Sequence record: ON568341.1
Direction: 5' to 3' (one strand)
DNA from: Escherichia phage UE-S1
Length of the DNA: 64,000 bases
A model generated the notes under the pieces. It was given only the letters and a program-made list of their open reading frames with translations. It was not told the origin of the DNA and did no database searches. Both the position numbers and the translations under genes were made by a program. Below are positions 13,618 to 13,950 of the stretch, piece by piece (position 1 is the first letter of the stretch; each line of letters starts with the position of its first letter).

Positions 13618-13950
13618 ATGCTAAATCTAAATATTCAAGGCAACGTTGATATCACTCCAGCAATCCAAGATGCTATTTATAATGAAGCAAAAAGTCTGGA
13701 TAAGTACCGTACTTCTTCAGTACTAGACATTGGTGTTCATGTTAAGAAAGAGCATAAAACTCAATATGCTGTAACTTTAACTGCTGGTAGTAAATCAGTA
13801 ACTGCTGATGATGCTGATTTGTATAAAGCAATTGTTGAATCTTTTGATAAGATGGAAACTGTATTCAGTAAAGACAAAAGCATTAAATTACACCGCCGAA
13901 ACCATCCAGAACACCCCGTTCTTGATGATTTGACAGAAAACGAAGAGTAA
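13618..13950 (+). CDS. hpf: ribosome hibernation promoting factor (HPF/YfiA/RaiA family) homolog
   Basis: MLNLNIQGNVDITPAIQDAIYNEAKSLDKY aligns with bacterial HPF MQLNITGNNVEITEALREFVTAKFAKLEQY; resemblance continues over the ~95 aa core. Confidence 0.7.
   Translation: MLNLNIQGNVDITPAIQDAIYNEAKSLDKYRTSSVLDIGVHVKKEHKTQYAVTLTAGSKSVTADDADLYKAIVESFDKMETVFSKDKSIKLHRRNHPEHPVLDDLTENEE

Follow-up and report, generated by a model that had tools for sequence, protein, structure and literature searches.

A divergent HPF/RaiA-family protein encoded beside the lysozyme gene of a jumbo coliphage, with a predicted promoter-terminator unit at the end of its gene

Ribosome hibernation governs whether starved bacteria retain usable translation machinery, and gut phages mostly meet such cells. 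Why, then, does a jumbo coliphage carry a relative of the bacterial hibernation factors HPF and RaiA next to its lysozyme gene, how is this gene expressed, and what may its product do to host ribosomes? The DNA analysed here, referred to as the window, comprises 64,000 nucleotides of Escherichia phage UE-S1 (ON568341.1), an Asteriusvirus jumbo coliphage of the 121Q/PBECO4/slurp01 group whose closest database record, ph0011, is 95% identical at the nucleotide level.

Homologs of HPF/RaiA are found repeatedly among large phages. The HPFs of GAP32 and of rV5-like phages were described by Mizuno et al. (2019), who proposed that these proteins compete with the host factors, preventing ribosome dimers (PMC6375957). 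The rV5 HPF, the only phage HPF tested so far, was expressed, yet absent from high-salt-washed 70S and 100S ribosomes, with 100S levels unchanged; the authors themselves cautioned that the high-salt wash could have stripped a true binder (PMC6375957). The single test of the role was thus negative, and we found no later functional work on a phage HPF in the literature.

The identification as such is already known from identical proteins in GenBank (100% identity in slurp01, SP27, G17, Sharanji and others), from the RefSeq name of the 121Q ortholog gp533, "HPF/RaiA family ribosome-associated protein", and from the work of Mizuno et al.; in itself it adds nothing beyond the databases and the 2019 paper. 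The protein has also been placed among the translation factors in the Sharanji paper (PMC11895373). Other records name it "sigma 54 modulation protein/S30EA", "ribosome-associated inhibitor A" or, wrongly, "putative sigma factor". Old misnomers persist in ON286972 (A4), MH383160 (UB), MT884009 and OR062530: HPF homologs appear there as "putative sigma factor" or as "sigma 54", and for two rV5-like records the HPF match falls on a feature labelled "ATP-dependent protease La". The designation sigma-54 stems solely from hpf adjoining rpoN in E. coli. What our analysis adds is the selection acting on the gene, its conserved order, the absence of a close bacterial relative, the RaiA-like tail, the losses in helix 1 and a predicted promoter-terminator unit that overlaps the gene.

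Family membership, fold and C-terminal extension

The gene is an ATG-initiated open reading frame of 110 codons plus stop at 13618-13950 (+), and its translation is identical to that quoted in the initial annotation, which placed it downstream of a lysozyme gene with a ribosome-binding site and a terminator of its own. The position is borne out, as the upstream gene (12674-13600, +) encodes a 308-aa lysozyme composed of an N-terminal hydrophobic segment, a LysM domain and a GH24 phage-lysozyme domain (Pfam PF00959, E = 3.4e-10). So is the ribosome-binding site: the Shine-Dalgarno-like stretch AAGGAAGGTG at 13604-13613 (+), read from the sequence and kept in orthologs, has the ATG 4 nt on, and the lysozyme stop codon (13598-13600) lies 17 nt back. 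The downstream gene (14004-14399, +) encodes 131 aa and belongs to PHROG 36582, to which no function is given.

The initial annotation further called the product an HPF/YfiA homolog and named a profile search and a structural superposition as ways to check this; both support it. Pfam PF02482 (Ribosomal_S30AE) matches at 41 bits (E = 3.3e-10) over profile positions 2-84 of 88, i.e. far beyond chance and above the curated gathering score of 23.7 bits, and the match is precomputed for all members of the clade. A pairwise BLASTP comparison with E. coli HPF, whose sequence had been quoted correctly, yields 28% identity over 95 residues (E = 6e-9). Among PDB sequences, phmmer retrieves the HPFs of Thermus, Bacillus, Vibrio and E. 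coli (E between 5e-7 and 5e-3) along with RaiA. In PHROGs the protein falls into phrog_34864, which has no function assigned, with a weaker match to phrog_8990 (S30EA).

An AlphaFold model built from 13 clade sequences (pLDDT 75) displays the beta-alpha-beta-beta-beta-alpha core of HPF, with strands at residues 2-8, 36-44, 50-56 and 59-65 and helices at 14-30 and 68-86. It superposes on the E. coli HPF of the 100S ribosome (6h4n_x) with an rmsd of 1.7 A. In a Foldseek search of the PDB the 38 best matches (all E <= 1e-3) are HPF, RaiA or pY, many of them in ribosome-bound structures, and the TM-score normalised to the target reaches 0.81. The folded core comprises residues 1-87 (13618-13878, +), with a pLDDT of 74-88 per 10-residue block up to residue 80 and the last helix ending at residue 86, while residues 88-110 (13879-13947, +) form a C-terminal extension that is predicted to be disordered (pLDDT < 50).

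At the level of the individual paralogs the resemblance fades. The score for the NCBIfam equivalog TIGR00741 (yfiA, HPF/YfiA family), 36.3 bits, is below the cut-off of 40.9, so that the RefSeq name holds at the family level only. The model for the short HPF of Enterobacteria (NF007780) yields 23.2 bits against a cut-off of 125, and the extension is present, so the protein does not classify as one; the RaiA/YfiA equivalog (NF007654) yields 19.3 bits against 158, short of ortholog-level similarity. Since both scores are far below their cut-offs, orthology to E. coli HPF or to RaiA is rejected. A long HPF (about 180-190 aa, with a C-terminal dimerisation domain) is excluded by the length of 110 aa, the lack of a second Pfam domain and the predicted disorder of the tail. 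Dodecin (PF07311) was likewise discarded, as it scores 19.5 bits against a cut-off of 22.5 and no dodecin occurs in the top 50 structural matches. The protein is hence a divergent member of the HPF/RaiA superfamily and an ortholog of neither E. coli paralog.

Comparison of the clade with 57 bacterial-type representatives reveals which parts of the domain have been retained. The signature residues G8, T13, A15, D67, Y69, A71, I72, K78, K85 and K87 are present, as are the hydrophobic core positions. The positions equivalent to R17, K23 and K26 in helix 1 of E. coli HPF are basic in about 80% of bacterial homologs, and are Q/H/E, E/G/H and S/C/T/V/H/K, respectively, in Asteriusvirus; a further position, behind helix 2, is I/V there instead of basic. 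These changes imply that the RNA-contact surface may differ. The clade has in addition a specific, invariant basic strand, VHVKKEHKTQY, and a basic KLHRRN segment.

The extension begins with the basic KLHRRNH and continues with the acidic DDLTENEE; R94, D104, E109 and E110 are invariant in the clade. Its [AH]RR motif and its acidic end with one hydrophobic residue align with the RaiA tail ARR...DANFVEEVEEE. From the sequence, the layout, i.e. an RR linker followed by an acidic C-terminal tail, looks like that of RaiA rather than that of a short HPF. E. coli RaiA (YfiA, protein Y; 113 aa) likewise consists of a single Ribosomal_S30AE domain and a disordered extension of about 20 residues, has Arg-Arg at the same distance from helix 2 and an acidic C-terminus with one hydrophobic residue, and adopts the same fold (Foldseek matches 4v8i, 4v4g and 1n3g). 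However, RaiA is only 24% identical over 88 residues, consistent with the 19.3 bits on its model, and retains the basic helix-1 residues R17, R23 and K26 that the phage protein lacks; the phage copy is moreover encoded by a virulent phage, adjoining a lysozyme gene. The similarity between the tails could be convergence. E. coli HPF (YhbH, 95 aa) is 28% identical in the core and has G, T, D-x-Y, A-I and K-x-K in common with the phage protein; in contrast, its chain stops just behind helix 2 and it forms 100S ribosomes together with RMF, whereas the phage protein continues for 23 residues.

Relatives, gene order and selection

The nearest counterparts are found in other jumbo phages. The order lysozyme, HPF, a few small genes, CCA tRNA nucleotidyltransferase and Nudix hydrolase is common to several lineages, being kept in Asteriusvirus, Erwinia phage Hallingskeid, Salmonella phage Munch, the Mimasvirus phages GAP32 and CBB, and Xanthomonas phage XaC1. 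GAP32 gp183 occupies the same locus between lysozyme and CCA enzyme, belongs to the same Pfam family, and has an acidic tail and the same GGACAG...CTGTCC terminator; its BFVD model matches at a TM-score of 0.72, and BLASTP is almost blind to the relationship (E = 0.035). The HPFs of rV5-type phages, by contrast, are nearer to gammaproteobacterial HPF (about 43% identity) and reside in unrelated genomes of about 137 kb. In the phage collection, 130 records match E. coli HPF, mostly rV5-like, as opposed to 37 that match the UE-S1 protein; jumbo phages of the Munch type, of Mimasvirus and of Xanthomonas add to these.

An exhaustive profile search of 1.84 billion representatives returned a single cluster of true homologs at E < 1e-30, which is the clade itself. 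The next matches, at 1e-13, lie on jumbo-sized contigs; these intermediates are short proteins (103-116 aa) on contigs of up to 258 and 351 kb, and one of them shares 73% identity with the homolog of Salmonella phage Munch and its relatives. Ordinary bacterial HPFs are reached only after the intermediates, from about E = 5e-8. One further protein (P0015), of 1605 aa with about 29 identical 53-residue repeats, matches the clade profile at E = 2.6e-34; most likely it arose by misassembly of a tandemly repeated read and is no homolog. Recent capture from a host is rejected, as the nearest non-phage proteins among the 1.84 billion representatives are at most 31% identical, with E of 1e-8 or weaker. 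Searches of 5,426 complete E. coli genomes and of the PLSDB plasmids found no copy of the gene, and 121Q itself is the sole match in IMG/VR.

For pairs of Asteriusvirus orthologs with unsaturated dS, dN/dS is 0.12-0.27, with lysozyme in the same range, and the full-length reading frame is intact in more than 30 isolates. The HPF-like gene is under purifying selection. Judged by its sequence relationships it looks like an old, vertically inherited and fast-evolving accessory gene of a jumbo-phage lineage. It is dispensable for such phages, as RaK2 has no HPF-like gene at the locus and an unrelated gene in its place; that gene, ORF030, was considered as a hidden HPF and rejected for want of any similarity. 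That the gene is a decaying passenger with no current function can be dismissed as scarcely credible: its absence from RaK2 and the shortened copies annotated in four records of Salmonella SD-series Asteriusvirus are set against purifying selection, the many intact isolates and a conserved ribosome-binding site and terminator, and in the SD records lysozyme is split as well, indicating assembly or frameshift errors rather than specific decay. In SD-15_S21 (L010, 1454-2725) and SD-1_S14 (L011, 1622-2651), for instance, HPF is shortened and lysozyme is broken into two to three open reading frames. Because neighbouring genes are fragmented too, the SD-series copies are probably frameshift or assembly errors, and were not accepted as evidence of decay.

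Several neighbours in the window touch on RNA repair or translation maintenance, i.e. an RlaP-family nucleotidyltransferase (1713-2945), a 2H-phosphoesterase-like protein (12099-12509; Pfam 2H-SAK at 22.7 bits, below the cut-off of 27), the CCA tRNA nucleotidyltransferase (15550-16662) and a Nudix hydrolase (16771-17172), all on the plus strand, the last two assigned by orthology to 121Q gp539 and gp540. A 146-aa protein encoded at 6786-7226 (+) matches DUF5856 at 93 bits, with a weak match to a ferritin-like domain, and its 121Q ortholog is annotated as starvation-inducible DNA-binding (Dps-like), making it a second gene of stationary-phase type in an early-looking region. The small genes at 14004-14399, 14589-15005, 14992-15414 and 1315-1716 (+) have a C-terminal motif in common (e.g. 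QYQFIDDTFGIDFDTYQ and QYMFIDDTFGIDYSAYQ), which is also borne by RaK2 ORF030 at the HPF position of that phage (YMFIEDHWNLSYDEY); they constitute a paralogous family that expands and contracts around the locus.

A predicted promoter-terminator unit overlapping the gene

A sigma-70-type promoter-like site is present at 12528-12555 (+). It reads TTGACT-16-TATAAT, has a TG ahead of the -10 and agrees with the consensus at 11 of 12 positions; the lysozyme start is 119 nt further downstream. Its -10 region is kept in Asteriusvirus orthologs, and the site is the likely start of the lysozyme-HPF transcript. As no promoter comparable to this one is found between the lysozyme and HPF genes, the two are probably co-transcribed, ending at about 13989.

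The leader of the lysozyme gene (12587-12631, +) contains TGTAGAAAGTCC, which is invariant in Asteriusvirus and in Erwinia phage Hallingskeid, with the intergenic region otherwise diverged. On its 3' side are two overlapping alternative hairpins, GAGGC...GCCTC at 12602-12623 and ATGGC...GCCAT at 12616-12631, and this leader may exert translational or attenuation control of the lysozyme gene. The 12-mer TGTAGAAAGTCC occurs at no second place in the window. A role as a recurring phage promoter motif was rejected, since 7 matches compared to 5.1 expected represent no enrichment.

At the distal end, the terminator claimed 3' of the HPF-like gene is indeed present: the hairpin GGGACAGA-TTAAT-TCTGTCCC at 13962-13982 is followed by TTTTCTT, together forming an intrinsic terminator (13962-13989, +) that is predicted to end the lysozyme-HPF transcript. 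The position of the hairpin is kept in orthologs, and its inner stem carries compensatory substitutions, the stems being AAGGAAGCC/GGCTTCCTT in EJP2, GGGCAGCC/GGCTGTCC in Hallingskeid and GGACATTC/GAGTGTCC in Munch. The kept place in conjunction with these substitutions argues that the hairpin is a real structural element.

Directly before this hairpin lies a second sigma-70-type promoter-like site (13930-13958, +), TTGACA-17-TAGACT, which is predicted to serve the 131-aa downstream gene. Its -35 box (13930-13935) coincides with the Leu-Thr codons of the terminal DLTE, and its -10 box starts 2 nt after the stop codon of the HPF-like gene. In place of TAGACT orthologs have TATAAT, TATACT, CATAAT or TACAAT, and the TTGACA-17-TATAAT-like spacing is kept in Turkey5, EJP2, BF17 (TTGACT), Hallingskeid and Munch.

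Codon usage in this region points to a constraint at the DNA level. The Leu is present in seven of the eight compared sequences, all seven of which encode it by TTG, as opposed to 17% of the Leu codons in the window; at other Leu columns, pairs share their codon in only 14-29% of cases, apart from one column with 67%. For the last Glu, all nine sequences use GAG, compared to 15% of Glu codons. Overall, codon identity within the gene peaks over the last eight codons, at 0.82 versus 0.61 elsewhere. This pattern suggests that the conservation of Leu-Thr is at least partly held by the overlapping promoter. In GAP32 and CBB, TTGACA-17-TACATT and the hairpin lie beyond the stop codon, and the protein nonetheless has its acidic tail, from which we conclude that the acidic end is a feature of the protein. 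That the tail is conserved by an overlapping promoter only is rejected, since GAP32, CBB and XaC1, in which no promoter overlaps, have acidic ends with the promoter, or just the hairpin, after the stop codon.

Going by the standard distance between -10 box and start, transcripts from the predicted 13930 promoter would have their 5' ends within the left arm of the hairpin. They would consequently not form the terminator that stops the upstream transcript. Including 13930-13989, the window has four units in which a predicted sigma-70-type promoter is followed immediately by a GC-rich hairpin and a T-run, the others at 3008-3060, 4810-4862 and 7201-7254 (+), and in three of the four the -35 box is embedded in the final codons of the preceding gene. 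The window is also enriched in near-consensus sigma-70 sites (49 vs 27 +/- 5 expected). Phages of the Asteriusvirus type encode a sigma-70-type factor of their own (PMC11895373). We found no transcriptome paper on Asteriusvirus in the literature.

The locus also marks changes in sequence ancestry. Identity to slurp01 rises from 0.69-0.77 in the 3' half of lysozyme to 0.99 from the start of HPF (~13600), and identity to 121Q from 0.81 to 0.99 at ~13900-14000, i.e. at the HPF 3' end. These jumps indicate recombination breakpoints at the gene borders, and the pattern suggests a mosaic ancestry at the locus, consistent with modular exchange. The stretch 13930-13989 has the make-up of a PeSL-type element, a predicted sigma-70 promoter adjoining a stem-loop terminator at recombination points. 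In the PeSL motifs of T4-like phages (Arbiol 2010; Comeau 2014) a sigma-70-type promoter likewise stands beside a stem-loop terminator between modules, and PeSLs have been described as sites of modular exchange (PMC4122927). The likeness to the T4 PeSLs is one of layout, in a different group of phages, and differs in that the -35 box here is within the upstream coding sequence.

Proposed action on host ribosomes

Setting out from what is observed, namely family membership, fold, purifying selection, gene order, the anatomy of the transcription unit and absence from the virion proteome of a relative, we propose, at somewhat better than even probability, that the gene encodes a small cytoplasmic, non-virion HPF/RaiA-family protein that acts on idle host ribosomes in the manner of RaiA/protein Y. 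What we infer is that the protein binds ribosomes, that its tail has the function outlined below and that the phage gains by it. RaiA maintains ribosomes in the 70S monomer form, and the blocking of RMF and of 100S formation is believed to be due to its tail (PMC10502375; PMC11102965); HPF and RaiA shield rRNA from nucleases (PMC11102965). The RaiA-like tail, the 70S-monomer role of RaiA, rRNA protection and a non-virion ortholog together make a RaiA-like factor the best reading, at moderate confidence. The neighbouring genes of RNA-repair or translation-maintenance type speak for it too. The phAPEC6 ortholog gp292 is missing from the virion mass-spectrometry list of that phage, the one published virion proteome of a close relative, and on these grounds a virion protein delivered with the DNA is rejected. 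The phAPEC6 lysozyme ortholog gp293 was not detected in virions by mass spectrometry either.

The RaiA-like protein would operate as follows. The folded core would be placed in the decoding channel of vacant host 30S or 70S ribosomes, overlapping the positions of mRNA and of A- and P-site tRNA. The disordered extension, with its basic RR followed by the acidic end, would point to the platform region that binds RMF. In this way idle ribosomes would stay in a protected and reversible 70S monomer state rather than undergo degradation or become trapped in RMF/HPF 100S dimers, which may preserve a pool of usable ribosomes when the gut host grows slowly or is under stress. Independently of this, the final codons would also serve as the -35 box of the promoter-plus-terminator unit driving the next gene. 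The functional ideas in the initial annotation, i.e. that the protein shields or reprograms ribosomes or counters defences, are speculation, and similar roles appear in Mizuno et al. (2019). We regard the altered helix-1 surface and the negative rV5 experiment as the main evidence against a RaiA-like action.

The same two observations would fit an HPF fold repurposed for another target, e.g. phage RNA or a host RNA-protein complex, which we consider unlikely. Three conserved basic helix-1 residues have been lost and the invariant basic strand VHVKKEHKTQY has been gained, double-stranded-RNA-binding proteins appear at Foldseek ranks 39 and 41, with weak scores, and the rV5 HPF was not found on ribosomes (PMC6375957). 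However, the high-salt wash in that experiment could have removed a true binder (PMC6375957), and the signature positions common with ribosome-bound homologs are retained. The family as a whole speaks against such a change as well: we know of no PF02482 member with a non-ribosomal target.

It is improbable that the protein promotes 100S formation in the manner of HPF, working with host RMF to bring the infected cell into a hibernation-like state. The NCBIfam score is slightly better for E. coli HPF than for RaiA (23.2 vs 19.3 bits) and the best superposition is on E. coli HPF in the 100S ribosome (6h4n_x, 1.7 A), yet both scores are far under their cut-offs, and the RaiA-like extension of about 20 residues, which in RaiA is held to prevent RMF binding, has no counterpart in E. 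coli HPF.

A host shut-off inhibitor, which would block the decoding site to suppress host translation and possibly favour particular phage messages, is very unlikely. The protein has the fold and family of RaiA, which owes its name to translation inhibition and keeps tRNA out of the A and P sites (PMC10502375), but a block of the HPF type is not message-selective and would affect phage translation equally, with no sign of selectivity in the sequence. In addition, RaK2 lost the gene without replacement at the locus, and the predicted promoter is common with the lysozyme gene, not with obvious takeover genes.

For the RaiA-like action favoured here, the gene represents a clean test case, being under selection, at a fixed locus, with a RaiA-like layout and naturally missing from RaK2. 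More tentatively, it is possible that Rak2-like jumbo phages carry a long-diverged RaiA mimic, a dedicated viral device for controlling ribosome hibernation. The acidic tail of such a mimic would fill the RMF/anti-Shine-Dalgarno region, so that starved or stressed infected cells could not lock their ribosomes into 100S dimers, and nucleases would be kept from the decoding centre. If true, this would explain how slow, very large phages replicate in nutrient-poor gut hosts.
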